Assembly (NCBI GenBank): GCA_051294375.1
Contig: CM119265.1
Coordinates: 15,476,963 to 15,540,962, forward strand
Reading direction: 5' to 3'
Length of the DNA: 64,000 nucleotides
Source of the DNA: Paraspadella gotoi
Lineage: Eukaryota; Animalia; Chaetognatha
This document shows, piece by piece, positions 3,254 to 58,538 of this stretch. How positions within the stretch are numbered: position 1 is the first letter of the stretch; every line of letters begins with the position of its first letter. The position numbers and the translations under genes are program-made. The notes under the pieces are model-generated. The model saw nothing but the letters and a program-made list of their open reading frames with translations. It did not search any database and had not been told where the DNA came from.

Positions 3254-6200
3254 ATGAGTGAACGACATATCGTCCGAATGCGGGGTCTTCCCTTCTCCGC
3301 CACAGCCGATGAGATCGTCAAGTTCTTCTCTGAATCTAAGTAAGCTAGTATTGAAAATCGTAAGCTTTTATAGAATTTATTCATCAAAAAACTTTTCCTA
3401 ATTCAATTTTTCTTTTGTGAAGAATCGCGGACGGCAAGGACGGGATCCACTTAACGTTTTCCCGCGACGGTCGGCCATCGGGCGAAGCCTTTGTAGAGTT
3501 TGCTACTGAGGCTGATCTTGAGCGTGCTCTAGAAAAGCACAACGAGCACATGGGACACCGCTACATAGAGGTCTTCAAGACGAAGGCGAGCGAGATGGAA
3601 TGGGTGGTGGGGAAATATCAGCCGAGAGGCGGTTATGGTGAGTTAAATACCTATCTTTAATCTTTTTATCGTCGGAATCGCTTGCACTAGCGACGATTTT
3701 AGGACGATGGTCCCAATAAATGTCGGCGTTGTCGGCGTCGTCGTCGTTCCAAATTTATATATAAAATTAATTACATTAAAGATCGCCTTTATATAAAAGT
3801 GTAATTGTATGAAGCTAAAAATTTATATATATGAAATTGGTACAACCAATATATTATAATCATCAAAGTCCTTCATAAACGATAATTTTATAGTGATCCT
3901 AATATTTTGGTAGGATTTTATAAAATATTTATATAAAATTAATTATAATATAGATCACCTTTTTATAAAAGTATGCAATTGCAATTTTATCATCAGTCTT
4001 TCAAAATCGATTTATATTTGATAATGATTATGATATTTTTATATTTTGTGTTATTTTCTCTCTTTTTGTTGGTTTTGGGATTAGCGAAAACAAAAGTTTA
4101 TTTTGTTAGGTATTACAACGATTTTATTTAGAATGGGACGGTCATGTTTCGACTCTGTTTTTCGAGTCTTCATCAGCGTTTGAAAAACAGAGTCGAAACG
4201 TGTCCGTCCTATTCTAAATAAAATCGTTGTAATACCTAACAAAATAAACTTTTGTTTTCGTATGTCGCTCTCTCTCTAAATATTTCTTTAGTTTTTTTAC
4301 TTCTAAGCTAATTTTTAGCCAGTTCTGCTTACGGCAGATCCTGGCTCAAGAATTAACTTTGTCGGTAAGTCACTTAGATCTTGTCAGATCATCGAATTAT
4401 GATGAATTTTGCAAAAAAAATTGATGTCTGTCTGTCTGTCCGTCTGTCTGTCTGTCCGTCTGTCCCACCTTTGCTAATTACCAATGGATTGGGCGATTGA
4501 CTTAAAAATCTGTGTGATTGAGCTGGAAATCAAGTTTCGCTGGAATCCTCCGAGTAGAATTGAGTTAGTGGAAAAAATAACAATTAAGCTTAACTATTTG
4601 ATATTGCCCGTTTTTTTTGTTTTTTTTTGTTTTTTTTATTTAAAAAGTAAATGCATGTTGCAAAAACTAATACAAATATAACAATCACTGGCCGTGTGCA
4701 AATCCGGCGTTGTTTGCTTAACTTTTTTTATATATAATTTTTATGTTTAAAACTTAGTTTTCCTGTATAAAATTTGATTTTTTTTAGTATCAAAGTTTGT
4801 CATGAGTCCAGATTTTTGCTATGCGATTGTGACGATCCTTATTCTTTTAAGAGGAAAGGTCATTCAGCATAACAATACGTAATCATTGATGTGTTAGAGC
4901 TAATATATCGAGAAATACATTATAGTCATCAGTAATCACAAAAAAAAAGTTCTTATTTTATTTGTGTTCATTCTGTTTTCAATAATTTTTTTTAAATGGG
5001 TAAATAACAAAATTGTTAAGTTAAATGGGTAAGTATGGCAACAGCCGGGTTGCCTGTGATGCCCATTTGGGATGGGGCATCTCACTGTTGGCTTTGGGGG
5101 CTTCCGACCCTCAGTGACGCATCCAGTCACTGGCGCGGTTACCCTAGGACGGTCTCGCTTTGCCAACGCAGAGGGAAGTCATTAGGACTGTAGATGGAAC
5201 ACTACGCCTGGGATGGTGTGTTCCCCTCTGAGCCAATGGATTTGCTGAACGATGGTGGACGTGAGGCGGTGTGAATATACCGCCACAGGATCCCCGGACC
5301 AAGACATCACTCAGGTTCCTCAGCCTGAGAGGTGTCTGACAAGACTGTCACCATAGTGGGAGAGAGAGAGAGAGAGCGCGAGTTGTGGGGGCATAGGCGT
5401 TTGTCGTAGCGTACCCCAGGGGCATAGGCGTTTGTCCGTACGTACCCGAAGTCGGCAGGGCATAGGCGTTTGTCGTAGCGTACCCTGAGAAGGTTGCGTG
5501 TTCGATAGTAGGGCTCACCACTTATGGCAACGGCCGGTTGCCTGTGATGCCCATTGGGATGGGCATCTCACTGTTGGCTTTGGGGGCTTCCGACCCTCAG
5601 TGACGCATCCAGTCACTGGCGCGGTTACCCTAGGACGGTCTCGCTTTGCCAACGCAGAGGGAAGTCATTAGGACTGTGGATGGAACACTACGCCTGGGAT
5701 GGTGTGTTCCCCTCTGAGCCAATGGATTTGGCTGAACGATAGTGGACGTGAGGCGGTGTGAATATACCGCCACCTAAGCACATTTTTTAAAGATTTGTTT
5801 TTCAATCTGGTTGTTAAAAGATTTAGGTAAGAAGTTAAAACACGGATGGGATAGTTTAGAAGGGGAGAATTAAACAATTAATCTCGTTACTCTGTTGGTT
5901 TTCTAGTCATGAACAAAATCTTCAGTTAATAGATGGTAAAGAAATTCGAGCTAACAATGAATTTGAAGAGTTGCAGCCTAAACGACTGCAATAATATTGA
6001 ATTAAAAATTTGATTAGCAATCTTAAAAACATTTTTAAAAATGTAATAGAGAGACATTTTGATAAACGCGTTCCAGTTAGAAAGAATTCAGGGTTAAAGT
6101 TTAAAAACGTTTCATTTTCAAGGATACAAGTTGAAATTTAAAAATGTCTCTCTATTACATTTTTCTAATTCAGTAATAAAGAATTCATAAAAATATCAGA

Positions 6201-8253
6201 TCGATTGGCCTTTTCGTTGACCTGCAACTCTTCAGATAGGTTTCTTTTATTTTATATTATAATTAAAACCGATATAAAATGGGGTAGAATGCATCAAATG
6301 CTTAAAGTGAATACATTTTCGGAATCGCCAGGGAGTCAGCTTTCTGAATTTGTACTCCATTTTAGCCTTTTTGAAGTTGAATTGAATGACCCTTTTTTCT
6401 TAGTTTTAGTATTTCGTTTTTTAAAAATTTATATATTTTTACCTCTGTCACTTGAGGCTCTGGCGATGAGGAAGGAGTTGTCAGATTGAGAGGCTTACCT
6501 TTTGGATGCTCGAAGGAAGAAATTTCACAGTTCTTTAATGGCTTTGAAATAGTACCCAATGGTATCACCCTATCGTTTGATCATCAGGTATGGACTTTAT
6601 ATATACATAAGTATTAGCATGCGAATGTTTATTGCTAAAAATAGACTATATGCCCTCGATATAAAACCAGTAAAATCAATCATCATTCGCTGAATTGTCA
6701 AGGATTTATCATTTTAATTCTATACGGATAAATCAACTCTTTTTTTTTTTTTTTCTTTTCTTTCAAATTAGGGACGAAGTACTGGTGAGGCATATGTACA
6801 GTTTATTAATAAAAAAACAGCAGATGATGCTTACGCCAAGAAAAACAAAGACAGAATAGGCCACAGGTAACTATCCAGAAAACAGTTCGAGCTTTAAAAT
6901 GACCGATTAGTAATTTAGTTTTATAATAAATGCTTCCACTTTACAATTCCTACATTAATTTTAAATTTTCCTCTAATTTATATCATGGAGAAAATTAATA
7001 AATTGAAAAATAAAAAGCGGGAGCCTAAATTGAACCAATTACCAGACATGCCTGGGTAACGGGCAATGGGTTAATAATGGTTTAAGGGGATTTTTTTCTT
7101 TGTCATTGGGCAACTCTCTATCAGATACATCGAAATCTTCAAGTCTTCATCCTGGGAAATCGGAGCTGGCGGCATGGGAGGAATAGGCGGAAGAATGGGC
7201 ATGAGGGGGCCAATGGGCATGGGAAGACCAGGGCCCTATGATCGAGGAGATCGATATGGCATGGGGGGTCCGATGGGGGGACCCATGGGTCGCTATGGCC
7301 CGGGAGGATACGGCAACGTGAAGGGACCTGGGGGCATGTACGGTTATGGGGGGTATGGAGGTGGGTTCAATTTTTAATTTTATTTTTTGGATGCGATGTT
7401 CTCAAGGGGTCATATTAAATATATTAAGATTTAAATATAATAAATTAAATAACCAACTCTTATTATTATCGTCTATCTTTGAAAGAAATCGTACCTATAC
7501 CTTGACACCTTGGTAGTGGATCGATGTTTCTTGTTGATCGATGCCATTTATTATTTTGAACGTTGTGTTTTATTTACATGTGTGTGCGTCTTGTTTTGTA
7601 ACTGAATTAATTTTTTGCAAAGTGCAATTTTCCCCCTAATAACCGAAAAATTATGGCCGATCATTAGGAGGTGGTTATGGTGGACCCGCAATGCCAATGG
7701 GGCGTGGAGGCTTCGGAGGAGGATTCGGAGGTGGACGTAGTAGTGGGCCGCCTGGAAGCAGTTTTCATTCATCTACAGGCAAGTCGATGTCTATCGTTTC
7801 TTCCCTGCTCTAAATACTGTACGCATTTGTTTTGTTTCAGGCCATTCGGTCCACATGCGCGGACTTCCATTCCGGGCGACCGAAAACGACATTATCGAAT
7901 TCTTCTCCCCGCTGGTTCCCGTCGGAGTTCACGTTCACTACGAGAGCAATGGGCGCGCCACCGGCGAAGCCGACGTTGAATTCGAGACGCACAGGGATGC
8001 ACAAGACGCGATGAAAAAAGACAAACAAGTAGGACTGGGGAAACGCGCGAATAAATTAGTAAATTAAATTATTAGTAAATTAAACGACTAATTTTTCTTC
8101 GTCTAAACTTTTTTGCAGAACATGCAACATCGGTACATCGAGTTGTTCTTGAATTCCGGCGAGAGTGGAGGCCGCCGAGGCGGGGATTTCCGAAATGGCG
8201 GGTTTGGAGGTTACGGCGGATTCGGGGGTGGTGGCGATTACCCTTACTACTGA
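3254..8253 (+). CDS. hnRNP F/H family (glorund-like) protein, paralog 1; three qRRMs, multi-exon
   Basis: Exons read by hand: 3254-3339, 3423-~3638, ~6457-6587, 6772-6866, ~7125-7361, ~7669-7778, 7841-8028, 8119-8253. qRRM motifs 'VRMRGLPFS', '[11 protein letters not shown]', 'MGHRYIEVF', '[15 protein letters not shown]', '[12 protein letters not shown]', and the 'RPGPYDR' GYR motif. Confidence 0.9.
4085..4260. mobile_element. Inverted-repeat relic of a Penelope-like element carrying a minimal hammerhead motif
   Basis: Arms 4085-4163 and 4182-4260 are near-perfect reverse complements. The minus strand of 4138-4179 reads ACG-CTGATGA-A-GACTC-gaaaaaca-GAGTC-GAAA-CATG-AC-CGT. Confidence 0.65.
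5087..5167 (-). ncRNA. Predicted twister ribozyme, P5-type permutation (LTR copy 1)
   Basis: Minus strand: GUUGGC AAA GCGA GA CCG UCCUAGGG UAA CCGC GC CAGUGAC uggaugc GUCACUG AGGG UCGGAAGC CCCC AAA GCCAAC. Fits twister P1-P5 with pseudoknots T1 (CCG/CGG) and T2 (GC/GC). Confidence 0.8.
5388..5485. repeat. Three ~29-bp direct repeats (gggcataggcgtttgtcgtagcgtaccc) inside the LTR element interior
   Basis: Copies at approx 5388-5416, 5419-5447, 5458-5485. Confidence 0.85.
5488..5520 (-). promoter_or_regulatory. Primer-binding site complementary to a tRNA-Trp-like 3' region
   Basis: Plus strand agaaggttgcgtgttc...gggctcacca resembles the variable loop/T-arm (AGAAGGTTGCGTGTTC) and 3' end (GGGGTCACCA) of recalled eukaryotic tRNA-Trp; it lies 2 nt from the LTR. 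Confidence 0.65.
5573..5653 (-). ncRNA. Predicted twister ribozyme, P5-type (LTR copy 2)
   Basis: Same core sequence as 5087-5167. Confidence 0.8.
5964..6234. repeat. MITE/foldback-like element with nested inverted repeats
   Basis: tgaagagttgcag (5964) versus ctgcaactcttca (ends 6234); internal aaaatgtaatagagagacatttt versus aaaatgtctctctattacatttt. Confidence 0.5.
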
Positions 8254-8985
8254 ATTCCCTAGGAATTTGTACGTTTTCTTTGATATGTTTTTATTTTGGG
8301 CTGTTTCGTAGATCGGTCTGTGTTAACTTTGGCGGGAGATTTAAAAGTATTTGCACCTAGTTACTAAGTTACATTCCATGGATTTTGGGTAACCTGGTTT
8401 TAAGGAAGTTTATTAATTTTTCAAACATTGGCTTATTGGAACTGAATTTAACTTATCAAAAATACTATTTAGTATTTAGTATTATTTAATACGCTCTTTC
8501 GTACGAATAAACGAAACGCAGATTCTAACAGATCTTTTCACGTTGCTCTGTCCTGAAGCATGTCGGGCCTGTCGGCGCTTTGCCATTACAGTAGGTCTCA
8601 CTCGACTTGGATGATATGATTCTATGAATCCTTCGATACGTCATAGGGGCCCCTTCAGCTTCCATTTCCTGCTTTCCCCTCTAGATTTGTCATCTTTTTT
8701 CGAACACAAGATGTTTATTAGTAGCTAGTCTTGAAGAGCGATTACGATCGAAACAAAAAACTTCCTAAGTTTTCGCATTTATTTATTCCTCGTAAAATAT
8801 GTAAACCATAACAATAAAGGAAAATCAATGAATTTTCTCTCATTAGCGAATTGTGTTGGTATTTTGATTTGAATATTTTTTTCACTCTACCAAAATATCG
8901 TCTCTTATCGTAGGTTGATGTAAAAGTTCAAAATTTTTTAAATAAAGCTCAAATAAAAAAACGAACGAAATACTAATTGATAAAA

Positions 8986-10916
8986 ATGTCGACGGAAAGC
9001 AGTGATTTCATCGTCCGCGTACGCGGTATTCCATTCTCCGCGGGTAAGGACGAATTGCGCGCTTTCTTCGCCGGTTGTCACGTCCGCGGAGGCCGCGACG
9101 GCGTTCACCTTACCTACATGCAGGGCGGACGTCCGTCTGGGGAAGCCTTTCTCGAGCTCGAGACACAGGAAGATCTGGAAAGAGCTCTCAAGAAAAACAA
9201 GGACTACATGGGGCAACGTTATATCGAAGTCTTTCAAGCACAACGGGTAAAGATGAATGTTTTTCCCCTTTTGTAATTTTTTTTTCATATAAAAAAACCA
9301 ATAATTGCTTTCCCTGACTCTAAACTTTAGTCGGAATACGAGTGGGTAAAGCGACGAACAGAGTTCGACACATTCAACCTTGAGGACGGCGTCTTGCGCC
9401 TTCGAGGATGTCCCTTTAACACGAAACCCGAGGACGTCATCAGATTTTTCAAGGGCCTTGAAATTGCGCAGGACGGAATAGTTCTTCCTATGGACGAAAT
9501 GGGACGGTGAGAGAGAGAAGAGGCATCTTCTCAAAATCTGGGAGTCGTTCCATTGAAAAGTATTCCATTGGTTGTATTTGTCCACAGGCCGGGCGGAGAG
9601 GCGTACGTCCAGTTTACGACCAAGGAAGCTTCGGAGGAGGCGATGAAACTGAACCGTGAAAGAATGGGTCACAGGTGAACTATTTTCCTCCCCGTTTCTT
9701 CAGAATGAGAAATCGGGGTATGTCTTATCCTTTTAAATCCCCCCGACCCTGTTGTGGAGGGTGGTAGGGAAGCTTAGGTAATTCATTAGTTAATACACAT
9801 CCACGTAGGTACATAGAGATCTTCAAGTCTTCGCTGTCCGAGATGCGGGCGGCCGAGCGCGGGGAACGCCCGAGCGCGCCCCCAGGAAGGGGAGGTGGGC
9901 GTGGGGGGATGGCTGGGTGGAGGCCGGGACCCTACGACCGCTCCGACGGAATGGGCTTCGGAGGGAGGAATGTTAAAGGCTTCGGAGGAAGAGGTTTCGG
10001 AAGAGGCGGAATGGGTGGGATGGGCGGTGGCGTGGGAATGGAAGGCTGGGGATATGGCGGCGAATCGATGGGCGGCGGTTTTGGCAAGTGGTCATCCCGC
10101 GGAGGTGGCGGGACTGGACATTCCTGGGCCGCGCCCAAGAGCGGTCCGGGGAGCGACCACAAGCCGTCGACCGGACACGCTTGTCATATGCGCGGTCTGC
10201 CATGGCGAACCACGGAAACGGATATAATCAATTTCTTCCACCCCATCGTCCCCGCCGCCGTGCATCTACACTACGAGCCCGACGGTCGCGCCACCGGTAC
10301 TGCTGACGTCGACTTTAACACTTTCGAGGAGGCGACGGAGTCCATGAAAAAGTCCGGGGAGTACATTGAGTCCCGATACATCGACCTGTTCCTGAACACC
10401 ATCGGACCCGAAAACGACGGCCCGACCATGATCGGCAATTCTATGATCAGTCCCCGCGGCAGCGCTGGATACACTAAGTCCTTCTCTATGCGTCGACCCC
10501 TCGAAACCAGCACCGAGATTGGACCCAGGGCTGGACCGGGCGACGGCGCCGGAGACGTCGCTTCCTCTTACGCCGCCAACTCCTCCTCCTATGGCGCTTC
10601 ATCTTCCTCTTACGCTGGTTTGAGCGCCGCGACGGGTCGAGACAATTACAAAGACGAGGGATGGGGCGGAAGCAGTGGGTGGGCCGGAAGCCAAGGGTGG
10701 GGCACCGGTGCCAACGGTTACGGGGCCGGGATCGACAGTTCCAGCGGTGCGAGTAAGGGGTACGGCGCTTCGGGATCCATGGACGCCGGCTACGGATCGA
10801 TGCATGGAATGGGAGCGATCAACGCTATGAACGCGATGGCTGGGATGAGCGGCTCAAATTACGGTGGGTTTGGATCTTATGGAGGATTAGGTGGTTACCC
10901 TGGCGGAAAATACTAA
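8986..10916 (+). CDS. hnRNP F/H family protein, paralog 2
   Basis: 'VRVRGIPFSA', '[12 protein letters not shown]', 'YMGQRYIEVF', 'LRLRGCPFNT', 'RPGPYDR', 'CHMRGLPWRTTE...GRATGTADVDF', Gly/Tyr-rich tail; short GT-AG introns. Confidence 0.9.
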
Positions 10917-11306
10917 GAACCACCGGGAAAAAAAAAATTTCCATATCCCTCGAATTGATATACTTTATATAAACTAACAAAAAACTTTGGATCAGTAGTC
11001 TTTTTTTCGTTATTCATGTTAGCTTAGAGTAATTTTGGAAAAGATATTAGATGCTTTAAGCCTAGAAACTTTTAAATTATAACTATATTTTAACTTTAAT
11101 ATTTTCGTATTTTAAATCGGCATTTGTATTGTCTCCTTATTGCATTCTGATTCCCCAATTCACCCATTTTTTTCTTCTTCCGTCATTCATATTTTTTCAT
11201 CCATCTTCAGCATTGTAATTTAAGGGTTAAATCATTCGCCGTTAGCGAACTTTTCAGTACACTGTCGATTTTTTTCTCGCCATTTCTTCCCGACGGATAC
11301 GATAAA

Positions 11307-13519
11307 ATGGCTCCAGACGATTTTATTGTCAAAATTCGAGGCTTGCCTTTTTCTGCCTCTGCCGACGAGGTGACCAGCTTTTTCGCCATGTGTCGAATCC
11401 GCGGCGGCAAGGACGGTATCCACATGGTTTACTTGCGCGAAGGTCGCCCCTCCGGAGAGGCCTTCGTCGAGTTCGAGACGGAGGAAGATTTGCAAAAAGG
11501 ATTGGCAAAGAATCACGATCACATGGGGCACAGATACATCGAAGTTTTCAAGGCTAACCGGGTGATCAAATTAATTCTTTCTATTTTTTTCTTTCTTTTA
11601 TTGTTTTTCTTTTATTACAAATCTGGGCTTTGAATTTTTTTTGAGAAAAAAAAAAGACGCTCAAATTTTTTTTTCGATGAACTTTATTCTTAAAATCTGA
11701 TTTTATTTGAAGGGTGAAATGACATGGGTTCTCGAACGCCAAGGAGCCAATGGTGGCGAAATCGGAAACGACGGAGTTGTTCGTCTTCGAGGACTGCCGT
11801 TTGGTACCACCCCGGATCAAGTCAAAGATTTTTTCATTGGCTATGACGTCTTAGAGGATGGCATTGTCATCCCAACCGACTCCATGGGGAGGTGACTATC
11901 TTGTTTCATTTTAAGTCAAGATCTAGCGTTTAATGGTTTTGTTTTTCACCCGCAGACCCGGTGGTGAGGGTTATGTTCAGTTCGCTTCTCAGGAGCATGC
12001 GGATCATGCTCTAACCAAGGATCGAGAAAAAATGGGGCATAGGTAATTTTATATATATTTATATATTTTATACTGTTATTTTAGGACCATTTAGCTCTGT
12101 TGCAATTCTTTTTCTCCTTTCTGGTTTTATTTTCATTCAACGACAACGGGTTACGGTAGATAAAATATTCGATAGCTGCCCCCTATTCAAATTTTCAATC
12201 TTCTGGTCCTCTTGCTTTTCCTATACTACTACTATCAATTCCCCCCTCCCCCCTTCCCTCCGATTGGTTCCTTTTCGCCCCATGGTTAACTTTTATCAAT
12301 CGGGTTCTGCTCAGGTACATAGAAATCTTCAAGTCATCGCTGGCAGAACTCCGAGCTGCTTCCAGTGGAATAGCGGGGGCCAGACCTCTGATGCCTAGGG
12401 GGGGCATGCGGGGGGGAGCCAGGCCGGGACCCTACGATCGCGGAGATCGATACATGGGCATGGGAAGCTATGGAGGACGCCAGGGACCCATCAAAGGCCC
12501 AGGGGGTGGAAGCATGGGGGGTTGGGGCGGTTATGGCGGCTACGGGGCGGGGGGTTTGGCACCTACCCCGGGATGAATCAAGCTGGGTCCGGGATGGGGT
12601 TTAACTCGACAACAGGTACGGGTTTTTGTGTTTTTATTTTGCGTAAAGGCGGTTGTCCCATGCACACCAAGAAAGAATAATAAACAGATTTTTGTATCCA
12701 GCTAGTTTGTGGGACAAACGTTTTTGAAAAAGTTGTAAAATCAGTAATTTGATATAACTTTATCGAAAGTTGTGATTTGTTCAATTCTTGATCAATTAAC
12801 CAACGTGCTGATTTTGTCATTTTCTTCCCCACTCCCCTTGCATGTCTCCTCCCTAAGGTCACTCCGTCCACATGCGCGGCCTGCCCTTCCGCGCTACAGA
12901 GAGTGAAATCATGACCTTCTTCTCCCCTCTCGTGCCCTCGGCCATTCACATCCACTACGAGGCCAACGGTCGTGCCACCGGTGAGGCCGACGTCGAGTTT
13001 GACGATCACGCCTCTGCGCTGGAGGCCATGAAAAAAGACAAGCAGCACATGCAGCACCGATACGTCGAGTTGTTTCTGCAAAGTCAGCCCGCCATCGGGG
13101 AAGGGTAAGATGTGAAGCCTTATTGGAGTTTGCTGGCTAAATGCTTTGAGCAATGTATATATGTATATTTTTTTTTTTAATTTTATTTCCGTAGCTACGA
13201 TCAATCATACGACGGATATGACATGTCAATGGCAGGACATTCCTTAAATGGCGCCGGGGCGCCAGTACCGCTGATGGCGAAGCCTCTTGGACCAAACCGC
13301 GGAGGCTATGGAGGAGGTCGCGGAGGTGGAACTGGATACGGCGTTTCCACTGAAGTTGGATTCGGACCACCACCTCCTGGCACCAGAGGCGGAGGGAGGG
13401 GACGAGGGGGCTTTGGAAAAGCACTCGGCAGAGGAGGTGCGCCGGGCTCCGCCGGAGCGTTGGGATACGGGGGGATGAGAGACAGTTTTGGCTACGGAAA
13501 CGGAGACTTTGGGTGGTGA
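11307..13519 (+). CDS. hnRNP F/H family protein, paralog 3
   Basis: '[10 protein letters not shown]', '[11 protein letters not shown]', '[10 protein letters not shown]', 'RPGPYDR', '[12 protein letters not shown]', RGG-rich final exon; intron positions shared with paralogs 1 and 2. Confidence 0.88.
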
Positions 13520-13975
13520 ACTGGCCGATCACTGGCCGATCTGTGTTTGTTAGCTGGACCAAAAGGAACTTTTCTGGCACTTAATTGTCTCGGGCGAACT
13601 TTATATTATGTCTCCTAGCAACGTCGTATTTTTTTCTTTTTTGTAACCCGATTTTTGTGTCCTTTTTTTCTCAATTCATTTACAGCAATATTTTTTGTCA
13701 GTTTTGATTTGCTGGTAATTGTCATAATTATGATAACGCAGTTTTCTTTTTTGTTAGATTACCGACAAAAACAGGAGAGAAAAACTTTACGATCAACGAG
13801 ATATTTTTGTTTGTGCCTTTTTAAACCCAGTCTCCCTCCGTAAACGTTTGATTGGCTTTTGAAACTATACCGAGCACCTTCGGTTAAAAACCCTATAACG
13901 TTCAAAATCACAGCATGACTTCGACAGGAAATCATTTCATGCATAAAAAAATTGCTTAATCATAACGTTGCCTCA

Positions 13976-23393: not shown

Positions 23394-26300
23394 ATGAATT
23401 CCGATGAAGATAAAGCTCTTTTCGATTTAAGTGTGTACAAGAAGCAGGAAGGATCACTACTTAAGTTTTTGTCATCGACGAAAAAGCCAGTTAATAAAAA
23501 TCCAGATTCGATGAAAGAAAATCACGAAGCCGAGAGCGTGAATCATTCGAAAAGCATTTCCGCGAACGACGACGCCGTAACCATTAACATAGCTAACGGT
23601 TTGGAAAACGAAAACAAGCCCCAGGAATGCAACGTCGTCGACGCTGCTTTCTCTCGTTCTCCAACGAACACTCTTCTTAATTATTTCCGACCGGCTCAGT
23701 CGTCGCAAGAGAAAAAAGAGGTCAAAGCCCAACCAAACATGAAAACCTTGTCGACTCGAACTGTGTTCGCCGATATCCATCCTGTTCCCCCCATCTATCC
23801 CTTGCGAAATTCTGAAGAACCCGAATCAACGGCGCCGCCTACTTTGGAAATGCTTATTTCGAACAGCGCCAACCTCGTGCTTAAGGACTCTGAGGAATTA
23901 GAGGCGCTGGAATCTCCGGTGAAAAAGGCATCTGAAGAGAAAGTTGAGCCGGAGGCGAAGATCCCCATCGCCTTGACGGACGAACAGAAGGAGAACTCAA
24001 AAAGGGAGCTTGTCAAGAAAAAAACCCAAGCTAAACTCTCTTTCGGTGGAGGCAACGGGTGTCAGGTGGGAAAACCGAAGATTGAAATGGAAATCGCTAA
24101 CGGGAAATCGGCGGAAGAATCCGAGGAGAAATCTTTTGGAGAAAATGTTAACGAAAAAATAGATGCGATGAAGCAAGTTAAAAACAAGGAAATTGTAAAT
24201 CTGGAGAAATCTGCGATGAAAAAGAGAGGAAGGCCACTAGGTAGTGCCGTGAAAAAAATGACAATGACTCAGTCGAAAAAGCGAAGTCAATCGGTGCATT
24301 ACGTCTCAGACGAAACAACCACGAACACGGAAATATGTAATTTTGAAAAATTAAAATCTACAAATCTGGAAAAATTGTCTTCAAGTAGACCGAACAGAAT
24401 CTCCTTTTCGGAAAAAGAAGGGAAAAAAGATATCTCGATTGCAAAAGCATCTAAACGACGAACGTCGGCCCAAGAGCCGACTTGCGATTCCAAACGGAGG
24501 AAAGTCGCAGAAGAAGACGACGACCTCGACGCGCCTTGCGACAGCCTCATTGGCAGGATGCAAAGAAGGATGATTGCTGACAGTTCTTCTTTTCAAGACA
24601 ATCAATGCCCTGACGATACTTCGATTCCTGAAACTTTTAATGATTCCGAACAGGGAACGGAGTTTATGGAGGAAGCTAATACTGCTGAGGTTGCTGAAGC
24701 TGCTGACAATGCCGACGGACTTCGTCGGTCCAAACGGAGTCGAACGCAAGTCGCCACCTACAATGATGATCGGCGTGGGTCTCCCATCAAAGCGGAATCG
24801 AATCGCGACGACTCTGTGGGAAAGTCGGCGGCGTCCGATGCCAACGACCATCGCTCGCCCACTCCAGATTCCGCGGATAAAAAAACTCCGAAGCGAATCA
24901 GAAGATGCGGTGAGTGCGGCCCCTGTCTCAGGGAAGACTGCGGCAAATGCGTCAGCTGCCTGGACATGACCAAGTTTGGCGGGCCCTGCATCAAGAAGCA
25001 GAGTTGCATGATGCGGCGTTGCCTGGTCAAGATGGCTAGATTGGGCGGTTCTGTGGGATCGGATGAAGGCGAGGAAGGGACTCGCATCAAGAGCCGACGC
25101 TCCTCGGAAGAAGGTGACGATGACATTAAAGGGAGAAAAAAGAATCGTGAGGCCTCTAAGGAAGATACCAATAAGAAATCGACCCAAGTTGCTAAAATCT
25201 TTACTCAAAAATCGGAAAAAAAGAAAAATCAGTTAGGCGAAAGCAGTGGAAACTCATCTTCACTCGAAAAAAAAAGCCAGAAAAACTATTCAAAGGTCTC
25301 TGCAATTATGGCGCCCATCTTTCTCAAAAACCAAAGCGAAAAGAAATCGACGCATACNNNNNNNNNNACGCATACAGGAAAAACCGCCGACCAACTGGAA
25401 AGCGAAGCGAGACGAGCCGCGTTTCTGCAGAGAGGAGTTCCTTCTTGCCTTAACAAGGAAGTGAAGATGGACGGCTTCGACGCCAAACTAAGAGCAGAAG
25501 AGATTCCAAATGATTTCTCCCACTTTCGATCAGTCCTTCATGTGCAGCAGCTGGATCGGGCTGAATATAGACCCGTCTCTCTTAATCTAGGTAAATTTAA
25601 GCTTAAGATAGATGACGATGAGCCGGATTCTAGTTCCATTCCGTTTTCGACTTGGGATAATAACCCTCGCCGTGTCTCGATGCCGGACTCGGATGAAAGA
25701 GAGGCCGTTACCAAGAAAAAAGTAATGTTGGAACTCGCCAAAATTCATCCAGACGGCATCAACGGTGCTACCATGACAGAGTTTTTCGTCAGCTACTTAA
25801 ATCGAGGGACGCCGTCGGATGAGCAGCCATTGAAGCTGAATAAACGACGCCTGGACTCGGCCGACGATGAGCCGGACGCGGATGGCGCCGAACTCTGTTG
25901 GACGAGCAAGTACCGGCCGACAAAGGCCAAGGAGGTCTTGGGCAATCGCGCCGCAGTTAAATTCCTCTCAGATTGGTTGTCAGAGTGGAAAGAGTACGGC
26001 GCCTCCGAGGCGATCAGAATGAAGCGAAAGGCCGAAGAGTCCGACTCCGAGTATTCCGACTCGGAAGAAAGCTCGTTTGATAGCGACGATGATGCCGCAC
26101 CTTCTCGTTTGGTCCTTCTCAGCGGTCCCCACGGCGTCGGAAAAACTGCCATGATCTACGCCCTTGCCCGGGAAAAGGGCTTCAAGGTCTTTGAGGTCAA
26201 TCCCTCCTCTCCTCGAAATGGACGAACAATTCTAAAGCAACTGCAGGAGGCCACGCAGTCGCATCACTTAACTCGGGGTGAGGCGACTAGAGAAAAGAAG

Positions 26301-51686: not shown

Positions 51687-53961
51687 ATGGCGCTAACAAC
51701 GACGGAGAGAGAGACGCAGCTCGCGCCGCTTTTTGACGCCGGATGGACGATGGTGGAAGGACGCGACGCTATATACAAGGAATTTTTATTCGAGGTTAGT
51801 CGCTTCGGACATGTCGAAACATGTCTGTCCTATTCTAAATAAAATCGTTGTTACTAGGGGTAGCCGCACTCAATGGGGTGAGTCAAAAATTTTGAGTGAG
51901 TACATGCTCAAACGAATATTTAGACATTTTTAAGAATACTTTCAATGGACCAAAAATTTCTAAAATGGCTCTATACCCTAGTAATTAATTTTTTAATATT
52001 TATTTATAGATAGGAAAGGCCAAAAATTTTTTTTGAATTTTTAAATTTTAAGACCAGATTCAGATAGCTCATAAAAAGTTGTCTACACAAAGTATGATTC
52101 TTTTTTAAATATTTTTACGATAAGTGTGTCAAAAATAAGAAAAACTGTAAAAAATCATTATCATCATCATCTTTCGATGATTTTATCAGTTTTTTTATAT
52201 TTTCACTTAGAAAACGTAAGAATTTTAAAAGCTGTAATTATATTTCTCGTTTAACTTTTTATGCTCTATCAGAATCCATCAAAAAATTTTGAGATTTTAA
52301 AAAAATATTTTTTGCTCAATATAGTAATATTATATATTTAATTAGGCGAGTACCCTCAGAAGAAAGCATTTTTGACAAAAAATATTTTAATACCATAATC
52401 TATGGTCATGATAGATTATTTTAACGCTGTATACATTAGCATTTAAATTTCATCGGCTATGGCTATTGTTACACCTAACAAAATAATAACATATTTTATA
52501 AAATTTTCTTAGTTTTTTACAGCGAATCCAAATCTGTTCTTAAAAATAAAAAAAAATATTTTATAAGGATATTAGTACATAAATAATTGAATTTACTATA
52601 CTGTTATGCTAAAAAAAATTTAAAAGAATTTAAAATTTTATAATTATATGTCCATAAGCAGCAAATAATAATGTTTAATCACTCCACCCAAATACACATA
52701 TAAGGACCAATTAGACACACACTCTCTTACACACACTCACACAGAAAAACATTTGTTCTTATTCTGAAGATATCTTGTTAAATTTAATACTTTTTCTAAT
52801 ATTATGTATTTCATATTAATTTTAACTTCCATGTCTAAATAATAAATTTGTTCTCAAAGTTCTGCATGAAAAACTCACACTTACTAACGAATCAGAAAAT
52901 GAAAAATAAAGAAAATGTACTTTTTGTTTCAGAATTTCAACGAAGCATTTGGTTTTATGTCACGAGTAGCGCTGTTCGCTGACAAAGTGGACCATCATCC
53001 TGAGTGGTTTAATGTATATAATAAAGTACAGGTATTTTTAATTATTAATAAAGTTCTGATGACTTACCCCAATTCTTAAGTATTTTTGCCGTATTTCTTC
53101 TTCCAGATACAATTTTGAAGGTAGTTAATAAATTTGATTTGATCTTTACATGCAAAATAAAAAAAGAAAAATTATTTCTGGAGATAACATGATTTTTATT
53201 TTTGAAATAAGCACTGACCTTCATAGTTCAAAAGTTTCTGAAGATCAGTGCTCATTTAAAAAAAATATGTTATCTTCAGAAATAATTTGGTTTTTTTTAT
53301 ATTATTGGAATGTAAAGACCAAGTCAAATTTATTAACTACTAAATCTCCTGCCAAAACCAGGACTCTGAAACAAACAATTTTGGATGTGTTTGGCCTTTC
53401 TTAATTCAAAATAAATTAAAGAATTTCATAATAAGCAGTAAAAATAAAATGTAACACTAATATTATTAGAACGTTTGTTTACAGTTTACCCAAAAGCTAA
53501 AGATACCTGTTAATTCGTGTCCCTTACTTTTAGTTTTCATCTATCTTACTTCGGCCATGACGATTGTACTGATTAATAATGATACTGTGGAGCAATCCGC
53601 AATAGGAATGATAACCATATACTTTTAATAAATAATACAAAAATAGTATTACACAAGCGGAGGTTACCTATTTGAAACTGCGCCATTAAATGGCACAAAT
53701 GCGCAAATTCTTTCGCAGTATTGCATCATAAGGAATTGTGCAAAAACGAAGGGAATGACTCTGACTTGTCACTTTTTTTATTTTCCTTTAAAAGAGGAGA
53801 CCTTAGGGAATTTTTAGTACTTGAATACGATGAAAAACTTGCGTTACAAATTTGTTATTTAAGTATTTGTTTTTAAGGTAACAATGAGTACTCATGACGT
53901 GGGTGGACTCTCCGACAAGGACGTCAAGATGGCGTCTTTCTTAGAGAAAATCGCGAACTGA
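51687..53961 (+). CDS. PCBD: Pterin-4-alpha-carbinolamine dehydratase (PCD/DCoH), 3 exons, 96 aa
   Basis: Exons 51687-51794, 52933-53031, 53878-53961 give '[18 protein letters not shown]|[33 protein letters not shown]|[27 protein letters not shown]'. Confidence 0.95.
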
Positions 53962-54630
53962 TGAAAAGAAGAACAACGTCAACGCTGGTCGCAAGAAATT
54001 ACCGCCACATTTTCGTCGCCAACGACGTCAAAATGATCTTTTTTTTTAGGGGGGCGTCGCCGGGAATACTATCCAAATCCAATGGAGCAAACGAATCTAT
54101 AGTTCTTATTATTGGCAGTGATTTCTATTTGGGTATTTTCAACAATGAATTTGGAACTTTACTAACTATTATTTCTTTTTTTCCCACTGATAAATATGAA
54201 ACACCCTTTATTTAAAAAAACGGTTGGTTATAGTTATCTTCTCTTTATAACATAGAAGTCACTGGGTGAATTTCTATGTTTTCAAAATACGGTAAGATAT
54301 GATTTCTTTTACGATGATCATTCCAAATACGGTATCATCCTTAATTAAGAAGAAACTAAAAACGATTTTTCATGGTAAGACCAACTTTTAGAGATTAAAT
54401 TGCTCGTAAGATCTGTCACGTATTTTAGATATAGTACTGCTTAGGCAAAAAAAACGGCATGCTATAGTATAAAACTTTTTTCTTTTTTTCTATTCCTTTT
54501 CTTATTTACTTTTCTCTTTTGAACTTTCTCTCTGTCCCTCTTCTTTCTCTCTGTCTTTCTCCCTTTCTCTTACTTTTCTCTCCTCATAATTATCTGAGTC
54601 ATCCATCCTTTTCTTCCTTTACCTTTATAA

Positions 54631-54859
54631 TATGAGGAGAAGAGGGAGAACGAGAATGATAAAGAGAAAAAAAAAACAAGAAAGAAGGAAAAAAAAGAAT
54701 CAAAGAGGGAAAGAAAAGCAGAAATAGAGCGGAAAAGAAATAAAGTTTATTTCCCTTCCGCTCTATCTCTGCTTTTCTCTCCCTCTTTGATTCTTTTTTT
54801 TCCTTCTTTCTTGTTTTTTTTTCTCTTTTATCATTCTCGTTCTCCCTCTTCTCCTCATA
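54631..54859. repeat. Long imperfect palindrome (purine arm / pyrimidine arm)
   Basis: tatgaggagaagagggagaacgagaatgataaa... mirrored by ...tttatcattctcgttctccctcttctcctcata around approx 54744. Confidence 0.85.
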
Positions 54860-56155
54860 TAATATTTTTTTTCCACTTGTTCTCCCTCTCCCTGCCCCTT
54901 TTTTTTACCCATACTCTGCTTCTCTTATCTTTTTCTCCTTCTCACTAATTTTTCAAATCTTTCAAATGTATTGTAAGAAAAAAATAGGGTAGTGCAAGAT
55001 TTTAGCGGAAGTTTGGTTGCCTAGCAGATTTAAAAAATCGACAGATTTTTGCGGAAATTTTTTCCGCAAAAACGTGTCGATTGGGAGAAAAAAATGTCCT
55101 GACACTTCCATGACATTAAAAGAATGCGGTTTTTTTTAAAACTTGAACATTAGTGGGTTTCTCATCTGATGAAACTATAAAGTTAGTTAAAAAACGAGTT
55201 TTAGTTTAAAAAAAATGCACCTCACAAAACCTCACAAATTAAAAGTCGGCTTAAAATTTTTTTTACAGCCAAAGTATTGAATAGTTTGCCATAATTTTTT
55301 AGGTGTTGGAAGCTCAGTTGAATAGGAATATTTTCCTAGAATTGTAGGTAAATCAAATTATTTTTGTTAAACAAATTGTAATAAAAACTAAAAATGTGAG
55401 TTTTTGACTAGTCAATTTTAAAATTAATTCAAAGGCAAACAATAGATTTTCAATTGAATATGAACTAACTCAGTGGTAAGGAAGATAAAAAGGACCCGAA
55501 AACCGAAATAAAAAATTTTTCTCAAACCATCTTGTCATTCAAATCTCAAGACAAAAGTCAAAATGGACAAAAATGGACATAATTTTTTTTATTAAAAGTA
55601 GCAAAAATGATATTGATTCTTGATTAAAAAATTCTGCAGATGATTTCAATTAATCCGTAGTCTAGCCCACTTTGTCTTCGGGTTCAAATTTAATTAACTT
55701 TGTAGGTAATATTCTTGCAATATTGCAAAAAGTGGTTTTTTTGCTGAATTCCTCGATAGAAATCACTGCCTATTACGTTATTCCAAGAATTTGTTTATCT
55801 TTAAGGATAAAAATTGTAATATAATAAATAAAAACGTTTATTCGCCTGAAAATTTATATATATACATACGTTTGAGTTATCGAATTCCTAAAAACATAAC
55901 CGTAAAGTGTCGAAACTTGTTAAACAACAGATACATTAAGTTCTGGTATAGGCTGCGGCGTTTCGGGATTTTGTTGTTCCGGCTCCAGCTGCACCACTTC
56001 GCTTTGGGGCTCCTGCTTGTCCACCTGCTTGTCCACCTGCTCTTGTGTGTTCGTATTGTCGGGCAACTCTGGACAAGCGTTGAGCCAGGCCCCTCGGGCC
56101 TCTAGGCAGGCCCACGTCAGGTGTCGCTTTCCCGGGTTCGTCCGTGGCCTTGACT

Positions 56156-56350
56156 TTCGGCCCTTGGTATGAGTTGGAAGGTTAACGCATCATAAAGTTA
56201 ATAAAGACTCGATGTTATTATTCGGCCCTTGGTATGAGTTGGAAGGTTAACGCATCATAAAGTTAATAAAGACCCGATGTTATTATTCGGCCCTTGGTAT
56301 GAGTTGGACGGTTAACGCATCATGAAGTTAATAAAGGCCAGATGTTATTA
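56156..56350. repeat. 65-bp tandem repeat, three copies
   Basis: Units start at 56156, 56221 and 56286 (ttcggcccttggtatgagttgga...gatgttatta). Confidence 0.9.
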
Positions 56351-57979
56351 TGTAGTCGAAAAATTTGGAAGACCTTCATTTTTTGTCTAGCGAAAGCTTC
56401 GACGACGAGACCATCAAGTAGCTCGTCCAGCTGTTGATTGGTCAAGTACTTGAGATTCATCATTTCCTGACGAACGCTTTCCGGCAACATAGCGCTGGGT
56501 TCTATGCGTTGGAGCTGAAACAGAGGAAGTGACGCGTGGATGTCAATATATTGGTTGCAACAAAAAATTCGTGATTTATTAAAACGGGTAAAATGACAGC
56601 AATGATGTGTAGTTTGACCACGGATACATCTTAATATTTCATAGATTTATTTAATATCTCTCTTTATGTAGCTCCGCGAGACATTACTCTATACCCTATA
56701 TATTAATGTTTTAATATATAATTGTGTTATATAATGAGGTTTTCTTTCGTTGTGTAACGGGATTTAACGATTTTTAAATATTTAATTATAGATAAGAAAG
56801 ACTAAATATTTTTTTAAATTTTTTTATTTTTAAGATTGCATTGAGGTAGCTTTTAAAAAGTTGTCAACACCTCCGCCCCATTTGATTTTAATTTCATACC
56901 GAAAGGAACTATATGCGAGTTCCAGAAAACTAGCAAAACATGCAACCAGAAGAATTAATTGTTTATAGCTACTAAGAAACGTCAACATGTAGTTTCAAAT
57001 AAAATACCATATTGAGATCGTCTTTATACTGCTGAATGGCGCATTCTTTTCTCCATTCCGGAATTTCCTCTCTCAACAACGCATTATCGTTGTGTCTATA
57101 AAAAGAACAAAAGACCATCGAAAAAAAGGGCGACTGGAATTTTTATCTTTTCTGAAGCGGAAACGCGCTGGTCGTTTCAGTTGTGGGAGAAAGTCCACGA
57201 ATAAAATCGTCATTCATTCAATGTTTATATTATGATTACGATCGTACAAACCCGGGGTTATCGTAGTAACTGCGAATATTAATTTCGGTTTCCATTTCGT
57301 TGCGATTTTTGTTGCGAAATTGTTTCGTCTGCGCGCATCCCATTTTTTAAAAAAACGCCACAAATTTTAACCCACTCATTCGCTACAAACTGTTTTTAAA
57401 TGCCAGTTTAATACCAACCTTTTCTTCGTAATTTATCAAATCATTACTACATTCAATTAAATAAATATAATTCACTTACTTTATGACATAATTTTTTTTA
57501 GGTTATAAATAGAAAAAATGCCTCTACGAATGACGGAACAGGATTTCCGACGAATTCACACGGCAAGCCTTGAAAGGAAAATTTTTTTTTCGCTTCAAAT
57601 TTCACTAAATATTTTCTGACAGCCTCAACCAGGAATTTAACCTTAAACGTTCAAGGGGAAAAAAATCTTCTTTTTTTTCGTTGAGGGTGAAACAAGGGAT
57701 CGGCCCGGAACCGGCTAACCACACAAGTTCGTGTTATCTTTTCTTAAGATGTCTCAGGAATTTTTAAATTATTTGATTTAAATATATTCATAAACCGCTA
57801 AACTTACCAATATTAATAATGGTTAAAAATGAAGTTTATAATGAAGTAGTACGATAACGGATGAGAAAAGGAAGGGATAAGCCATAAGAAGGCGGAGATT
57901 CTCCGAAAATTGGGCAAGTCTCAAGAGCATCCGTAGAAGTGAAAGAGGAATTTTAAGTTGATGTCGAAAATAATTATAG

Positions 57980-58234
57980 TATGGCAACAGCCGGGTTGAC
58001 TGTGATGCCCATTGGGATGGGGAAGCTCACTGTTGGCTTTGGGGGCTTCCGACCCTCAGTGACGCCTCCAGTCACTGGCGCGGTTACCCTAGGACGGTCT
58101 CGCTTTGCCAACGCAGAGGGAAGTCGCTAGGACTGTGGATGGAACACTACGCCTGGGATCGTGCGTTCTCCCTCTGAGCCAATGGATTTGGCTAACGGAT
58201 GGTGGACGTGAGGCGGTGTGAATATACCGCCACA
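57980..58234 (-). mobile_element. Solo LTR of the twister-bearing element
   Basis: Near-identical to 5034-5287; flanked by 4-bp TSD ATAG (57976-57979 and 58235-58238). Confidence 0.88.
58032..58112 (-). ncRNA. Predicted twister ribozyme, P5-type (solo LTR)
   Basis: Core matches 5087-5167 except for a change in the P3 loop (gcctcca versus gcatcca on the plus strand). Confidence 0.78.
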
Positions 58235-58538
58235 ATAGAAAAGTTATTTATATCCAAATTACACGTCAGGTTCTTTTTAAAAATGGGGCTCCGATAGAAC
58301 GTACTGTAGTCCGGCGAGACGAGTGACATTCGAGTTTGCTGAAGTACAAAGCGAAATAATGACTAATAAGACTGACTCAGATTTGTTTAGATTGTCTTAG
58401 AATTTCATTTTTAAAAAATATAATATGTGAAAAGTCTTTCGTTTCGTTGCTTTTTAAAATTATCTCCCTCTCACTCTCAGTCTCACTCTCTCTCTATCTC
58501 TGTTGTTTGTTTGACAAACATTTTATAAATTCACATTT

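Follow-up and report, generated by a model that had tools for sequence, protein, structure and literature searches.

Retrozymes with long terminal repeats (LTRs) have been described in plants (PMC4918200; NbRZ1 of N. benthamiana, PMC9695139) as non-coding elements of 1-1.5 kb with one type III hammerhead ribozyme motif in each LTR. Animal retrozymes are referred to as non-LTR, or LTR retrozymes as primarily of plants (PMC7761336, PMC7229834, bioRxiv 10.64898/2026.07.22.740005), and twister ribozymes have been tied to non-LTR elements (PMC8501958). The locus in question lies in a window of 64,000 nucleotides (nt), this being the whole stretch of DNA analysed, from the chaetognath Paraspadella gotoi (assembly GCA_051294375.1, contig CM119265.1, positions 15,476,963 to 15,540,962, forward strand). 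It holds a mini LTR element of 741 bp in total (5034-5774) that possesses, beyond what chance would produce, a twister-type motif in each LTR. In anatomy the element is like a plant LTR retrozyme but it is not a member of that class, and a probability of about 0.5 is given to its being an animal LTR retrozyme of an origin independent from plants, namely a parasite of CsRn1-type retrotransposons which took up a P5 twister and whose RNA would form a 486-nt circle, reverse transcribed without strand transfer. The features of the element and of a related solo LTR are as follows, the sense strand being the minus strand:

5030..5033, no strand: left target site duplication (TSD) TAAG, from the sequence and from a single-copy empty site in contigs of three of the four sequencing runs aligned
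5034..5287, minus strand: 3′ LTR of 254 bp, TGT...ATA, with many differing flanks at both 5034 and 5287
5087..5167, minus strand: P5-permuted twister motif in the 3′ LTR, predicted cut U5141^A5140
5141..5626, minus strand: putative 486-nt monomer between the two predicted cut sites
5288..5522, minus strand: non-coding interior of 235 bp
5511..5520, minus strand: primer binding site (PBS) TGGTGAGCCC of the tRNA-Trp/CsRn1 type, 2 nt past the LTR
5523..5774, minus strand: 5′ LTR of 252 bp, starting GGT and ending ATA
5573..5653, minus strand: P5-permuted twister motif in the 5′ LTR, predicted cut U5627^A5626
5775..5778, no strand: right TSD TAAG
57980..58234, minus strand: solo LTR with an intact twister motif at 58032-58112
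57976-57979 and 58235-58238: the solo LTR's own 4-bp TSD, ATAG

By size, ends, PBS and TSD the element is a terminal-repeat retrotransposon in miniature (TRIM), i.e. a miniature non-autonomous LTR retrotransposon, being smaller than 1 kb with terminal direct repeats, a non-coding interior, 4-bp TSDs and a PBS after the 5′ LTR. These parts had been proposed in an earlier sequence-only reading of this DNA and all of them held, including the direct repeats around a 235-bp interior (given there as about 253 bp, here as 254 and 252 bp), the TAAG duplication, the TGG-starting PBS and the solo LTR with its own TSD. The two LTRs of the element are 97.2% alike, and the solo LTR is 93.7-94.1% alike to them. 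The 3′ LTR and the solo LTR start with TGT, the 5′ LTR with GGT (one of three copies deviant). On the sense strand the LTR reads TGTGGCGG...GCCATA, followed by AG and then by the PBS at 5520-5511. The G+C content is 57% in the element and 27-28% in its flanks. The longest ATG frame of the element codes for 52 amino acids (aa) and that of the predicted circle, on its sense strand, for 47 aa; a coding role was rejected, an endless circular reading frame included. A plus-strand sense was also rejected, there being no TGG site after the left LTR, with the motif and PBS both on the minus strand. No tRNA gene was found within the window. The interior has three 28-nt repeats (5458-5485, 5420-5447 and 5389-5416) as well as a short (CT)n run, and each of the 28-nt repeats (window 5389-5485) can fold into a small hairpin on the sense strand. 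These repeats are a candidate packaging or dimerisation signal.

The twister motif lies at LTR positions 122-202, once per LTR and on the PBS strand, and is of the P5 type, which was reportedly set out by Roth et al. in 2014. Its parts in the 5′ LTR are:

5653-5648/5578-5573, minus strand: P5, 6 bp
5644-5641, minus strand: P2′, followed by GA at 5640-5639
5638-5636, minus strand: T1 strand CCG, with its partner CGG in L4
5635-5628, minus strand: P1, followed by UAA at 5627-5625
5618-5598, minus strand: P3, 7 bp, followed by P4 of 3 bp and L4 at 5593-5586

The order of the motif is thus P5, P2′, GA, CCG, P1 hairpin, UAA, P2, GC, P3, P4 closing the loop UCGGAAGC, and the 3′ strand of P5. Every twister element that the sequence-only reading had placed on the minus strand of each LTR was present at its position, and the U^A steps it had proposed for cleavage were located at 5627/5626 and 5141/5140, 486 nt apart. 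Twister types are set out in the Fig. 3 legend of PMC6765202, and a P5 stem is present in about 1% of twisters (PMC6154101). For natural twisters, Table 1 of PMC8501958 gives UAA, CUCC, GC, P3, CCG, GUCCCAAGC, CCGG, GGAG and GAGGG. Measured against that table the fixed letters are all kept (UAA, GC, GU-nnn-AAGC and GA), and T1 is altered on both of its sides, with CCG facing CGG instead of GGG facing CCC (PMC8501958); the compensation in T1 is accordingly one relative to published twisters only. In pairing capacity, T1 has three of three pairs, T2 two of two (GC with GC), P4 three pairs and P2 three of four. The motif shares with type P5 twisters and the Perere-3 T-variants (PMC8501958) the UAA cut loop, P2, the GC/GC T2, P3, P4, the GU-nnn-AAGC loop, the GA before T1 and a 3-bp T1. 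It differs from these in T1 being CCG/CGG, in a C.A mismatch in P2, in having both P3 and P5 and in going unrecognised by Rfam. Furthermore, its place is in an LTR, whereas the Perere-3 twisters are found at the 5′ end of non-LTR elements (PMC8501958).

That such a likeness arose by chance in a GC-rich and hairpin-rich LTR is very improbable. Within the window, a descriptor comprising the conserved letters and helix pairing matched the three LTR copies and nothing else. It had no match among 60,000 dinucleotide-shuffled versions of the LTR, nor in the 865,176 bases of 66 loci chosen for sharing the conserved letters; it should be mentioned that the descriptor was written after the motif was seen, which speaks for chance, as does the lack of an Rfam match at threshold. 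The 66 loci (one hit in viral contigs and 65 in metagenome contigs) lack the helices and any LTR similarity, with a best blastn E-value of 0.26, and they were set aside as chance matches serving as a control only. In addition, twister-P1 is the sole Rfam match within 5560-5670 and falls on the right strand and in the right register, although the Rfam scan would hide a weaker overlapping match of another member of the clan. No Rfam match to a hammerhead was obtained in the window, and snoRNA and frameshift matches with E-values of 3-7 were taken as chance. The motif is also the least variable part of the LTR, with one of its 81 columns (in the P3 loop) varying among the three window copies compared with 19 of 175 other columns (Fisher p=0.004), or p=0.023 when only substitutions are counted. 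Among the family-level variants listed for the LTRs (40 of 85 entries for the whole aligned stretch), only one falls within the motif, and it too lies in the P3 loop. The motif is hence apparently under constraint, and it is very probably a twister by descent. Absent TSDs and eroded helices had been named beforehand as signs of a mistaken reading; both loci in the window do have TSDs, and among the three window copies the motif varies less than the other LTR columns.

The element or a part of it is contained in 13 of the 15 public runs listed, which come from six studies. Contigs of four of these runs (X1, X5, X9 and X10) were aligned to positions 4850-5960 for the analysis of insertions; X11-X13, whose share of the element is small, were left out of it. 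The best of the runs may stem from the very sample that gave the window. In three of the four, contigs join 5029 directly to 5775 (nine contigs in X1, three in X5 and two in X9), skipping 745 bases, with four letters that fit either side and represent a single TAAG; this is the TSD of the sequence-only reading in its unduplicated form. At the LTR end at 5034, 112, 95 and 26 contigs continue into unlike AT-rich sequence (agreement 0.44-0.48), and differing flanks were likewise found at 5287 (69 and 72 contigs) and 5773 (49 contigs), the flank detail at such loose ends being that of 19 of 860 entries. Given the empty site and about a hundred unlike flanks at an exact LTR end, the element belongs to a mobile multi-copy family with exact ends and at least about a hundred insertion sites. 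Read depth was not taken as copy number. In three runs read depth over the flanks of the element exceeds that of single-copy contigs. The target is thus a repeat in its own right, which leaves the TSD proven and an insertion polymorphism not. A first reading of the empty site as an allele was dropped on this account, since a paralogue may equally provide the empty form. The element sits inside another AT-rich repeat (window 4850-5030 and 5775-5950), and a 24-bp inverted repeat lies at 6037-6060/6141-6164.

No run identified as RNA was among those listed as containing the element, which speaks neither for nor against expression. Runs X9 and X10 were only guessed to be RNA and neither was counted as expression; the coverage of X9 extends over flanks and empty site as that of DNA would, and X10 covers eight of 30 bins at a depth of about 6. 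The latter run, which is labelled as another organism, has a near-identical 276-nt piece of window 5441-5711, and this may be due to carry-over, prey, a close relative or transfer.

The CsRn1 clade of Ty3/gypsy is marked by TGT...ATA or TGT...AAA termini, a PBS of TGGTGA(G/C)CCC for tRNA-Trp and a 4-bp TSD (PMC2582038). All three marks fit the element, with one of the three LTR copies starting GGT. When the PBS was set against the 3′ end of bee tRNA-Trp (supplement of PMC10886601), 11 of the first 13 letters paired, the tRNA being that of the bee and not of the host. Based on the TGT...ATA ends, the tRNA-Trp-type primer site and the 4-bp TSD, a CsRn1-clade Ty3/gypsy element is likely the helper, and the element can with high confidence be called a CsRn1-type TRIM. 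The Ty3/gypsy dependence suggested by the sequence-only reading is thereby supported and narrowed to one clade. The element resembles CsRn1, PwRn1 and AgCR of this clade (PMC2582038) in termini, PBS, TSD and an LTR within 146-383 bp, but it is without gag-pol and without a clear polypurine tract, and for the clade no ribozyme is mentioned in the excerpts of that paper. In X5, X9 and X10 there are contigs whose similarity is confined to 5492-5533 (the final 11 bp of the LTR, the PBS and a further 19 nt), with unlike sequence to either side. They hint at another LTR family that shares this integrase end and primer and that may be the autonomous CsRn1-type helper. A shared end and primer likewise link ta-TRIM to its proposed helper (PMC4558846).

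As to the replication of the element, a life cycle like that of plant LTR retrozymes is put at even odds by analogy with them. In it the two predicted ribozymes would cut the transcript at U^A and free a 486-nt monomer, the P5 permutation keeping both of its ends paired and side by side. The 5′-OH and cyclic phosphate ends would then be joined into a circle, presumably with RtcB as the ligase. A tRNA would prime at the PBS, and a borrowed Ty3/gypsy reverse transcriptase (RT) would proceed round the circle. That the predicted twister cleaves is probable; a circle as intermediate, argued from the plant systems, is as yet evenly poised. An RNA cut at both sites has no terminal repeat (R), which makes the first strand transfer impossible, and in the model for plant retrozymes it is the circle that overcomes the missing terminal repeat (PMC4918200). 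The monomer predicted here holds the sequence of one full LTR, the PBS and the interior. It has also been reported that tandem twisters yield circles in mammalian cells (PMC7229834). Counted in favor of the retrozyme reading are the position of the motif on the PBS strand, one per LTR, as in plant retrozymes (PMC4918200), and an LTR devoid of AATAAA or ATTAAA.

The element thus shares with the plant LTR retrozymes (PMC4918200, PMC9695139) a non-coding nature, one ribozyme motif per LTR on the sense strand, a PBS, the 4-bp TSD, solo LTRs, Ty3/gypsy dependence and a predicted monomer without R. It differs from them in its animal host, in having a twister motif and not a type III hammerhead, in a PBS of the tRNA-Trp/CsRn1 type where theirs is for tRNA-Met, in the lack of a clear polypurine tract, and in size, with 741 bp and a predicted monomer of 486 nt compared with 1-1.5 kb and 600-1000 nt. 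The circle is also not predicted to be compact. With the animal non-LTR retrozymes (PMC7229834; bioRxiv 10.64898/2026.07.22.740005) it has in common an animal host, the absence of coding capacity, ribozyme repeats a few hundred bases apart and an expected circle. Those elements, however, form tandem arrays with type I hammerheads that lack an LTR, a PBS and a 4-bp TSD, and they rely on Penelope-like elements.

A number of points weigh against the retrozyme reading. With regard to the motif, P2 has its C.A mismatch beside the cut loop, and P1 is only 2 bp (U-G and C-G) around a 4-nt loop. The significant match to a twister covariance model that the sequence-only reading had looked for was not obtained, Rfam giving no match in the window at the gathering score. 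The best match was a partial one to twister-P1 (16.1 bits against a cut-off of 67.2, E-values 3.1 and 0.35), which spans P3-P4-L4 (5092-5135 in the 3′ LTR) on the correct strand. Covariation is not demonstrable in three copies in which the motif is nearly invariant, and scans of viral and metagenome contigs found no diverged relatives of the motif. With regard to the element, the polypurine tract is the TRIM hallmark that is lacking, no clear tract preceding the 3′ LTR in this one copy, where the last letters of the interior are GGGGATCC and no purine run is longer than 6 nt, the longest lying 28 nt upstream of the LTR. The LTRs of the element differ at eight columns (four substitutions and four single-base gaps), which may reflect age or assembly error. 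Neither a tandem multimer nor an autonomous partner was seen, no genome-wide search having been made for either.

Folding predictions, from a procedure uncalibrated on known twisters, point both ways. When pseudoknots are left out of the model, P5 and P3 have a probability of 0.99, P2 one of 0.02 and P4 one of 0.01. A rival fold is then 9-10 kcal/mol more stable than the twister fold; its helices, with probabilities of about 0.95, take up the scissile U and the strands of both pseudoknots. The T1 and T2 stacks on their own would contribute about -9.1 kcal/mol. For the motif taken alone, P2 is predicted to be the first helix during transcription (0.73-0.96 up to nt 60), which counts in favor of the retrozyme reading, but with the upstream LTR included early P2 is erratic (0.06-0.81). 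Given the value of the stacks and the mixed result for early P2, either fold may prevail. Also in favor, the two products of cleavage are expected to remain paired (-30.2 kcal/mol, against -19.0 kcal/mol when apart). In the predicted circle the rival fold has a probability of 0.83; there it would protect from re-cutting, yet it would slow cleavage of the precursor, and a guard against re-cutting has been described for plant circles (PMC7229834). The predicted circle itself shows no exceptional stability (z -0.8, 56% paired), unlike the compact circles of plant retrozymes. Overall, of what the sequence-only reading had advanced as a retrozyme, the mobile non-coding mini LTR element, the 4-bp TSD and the twister-type motif stand, and the lack of Rfam recognition, the rival fold and the missing polypurine tract, which it did not mention, count on the other side.

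The same observations bear on a different account, in which the element is an ordinary CsRn1-dependent TRIM whose twister was captured from another retroelement and is now an inactive passenger, retained only through the youth of the family or through a role of its hairpins in packaging or transcription. The mismatch in P2, the 2-bp P1, the favored rival fold and an Rfam score far under the cut-off would all suit a passenger, as would animal TRIMs which have a 4-bp TSD and solo LTRs with no ribozyme reported in the excerpts of the papers describing them (PbTRIM, ta-TRIM and Helenus). Such a passenger would not be expected to have every catalytic and pseudoknot letter intact or to be the least variable LTR part (three copies; 40 of 85 variant entries for the whole aligned stretch), and P1 is in any case dispensable for twister cleavage (PMC6154101, section 5). 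This account is considered unlikely.

An active twister may also serve a linear RNA. Here cutting would be one-sided or partial, the terminal repeat would be kept and strand transfer would be of the ordinary kind with no circle, the ribozyme either substituting for a poly(A) signal at the 3′ end or freeing the 5′ end from host read-through. The LTR without a poly(A) signal, a ribozyme whose predicted partial misfolding would probably make it slow, and a predicted circle that is not unusually structured are all consistent with this, and the 5′-end twisters of Perere-3/RTE non-LTR elements do act as end processors (PMC8501958, PMC7761336). However, the same whole motif is present in both LTRs, and the sole TATA-like word of the LTR is at position 9, far upstream of the motif at 122-202, so that transcripts should include the entire motif of each LTR; once cut at the two sites, such an RNA has no R. 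Moreover ta-TRIM shows that an animal TRIM can be polyadenylated without AATAAA (PMC4558846), and the missing signal therefore does not demand a ribozyme. The making of linear ends is viewed as a rather doubtful explanation.

Among animal elements the closest in build are the TRIMs PbTRIM of ants (PMC3532108), ta-TRIM of tapeworms (PMC4558846), biv-TRIM (PMC6934838) and Helenus and Ajax (PMC10886601), which like the present element are smaller than 1 kb with two LTRs, a PBS, no coding capacity and solo LTRs. PbTRIM and animal Helenus also share with it a 4-bp TSD in AT-rich DNA. The word ribozyme is absent from the main texts of PMC3532108, PMC4558846 and PMC6934838 and appears in that of PMC10886601 only in the title of a reference. 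Helenus and Ajax LTRs carry tRNA or 5S pieces, whereas the LTR described here carries a twister motif and no tRNA. No report of a twister in an LTR or of an animal LTR retrozyme was found in the open literature, which agrees with the view of the sequence-only reading that an animal twister LTR retrozyme is not known to be described; most subscription journals and the Repbase notes were outside this search, and the supplementary twister lists (Roth et al., PMC8501958) could include LTR-borne copies unremarked.

If the retrozyme reading is true, ribozyme-driven LTR replication would have arisen a second time, the ribozyme, the primer and the helper clade all differing from those in plants, and ribozyme classes would be interchangeable in a scheme of cutting both LTRs, circularising and copying round. 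It would also be the first natural twister pair shown to produce a genome-encoded circle. The rare P5 permutation would gain a natural role in holding both monomer ends together, and the high copy number of the family would let the circle-template model, so far only a proposal, make the sharp prediction of recombination breakpoints at the cut site.

The neighbouring genes of the window include Timeless, KDM6A/UTX, WDHD1 and CTF8, forming a dense, intron-poor run of replication and chromatin genes (window 533-35000). The run also has a gene, apparently ATAD5-like, into which a CXXC-like cysteine stretch is inserted at about 24950-25050. CTF8 has 401 relatives, and in the 120 of them that were listed the named proteins are all animal and none is above 59% identity. 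At least three tandem RNA-binding genes, presumably of the hnRNP F/H type, are located at 7000-13600, with related repeats at 7839, 10172 and 12856. Long near-perfect inverted repeats, resembling miniature inverted-repeat transposable elements (MITEs) or fold-back elements, lie at 4085-4260, 54626-54864 and 53121-53340 with arms of 79, 119 and 50 nt respectively, and a 65-nt unit is present in three tandem copies at 56156-56350.

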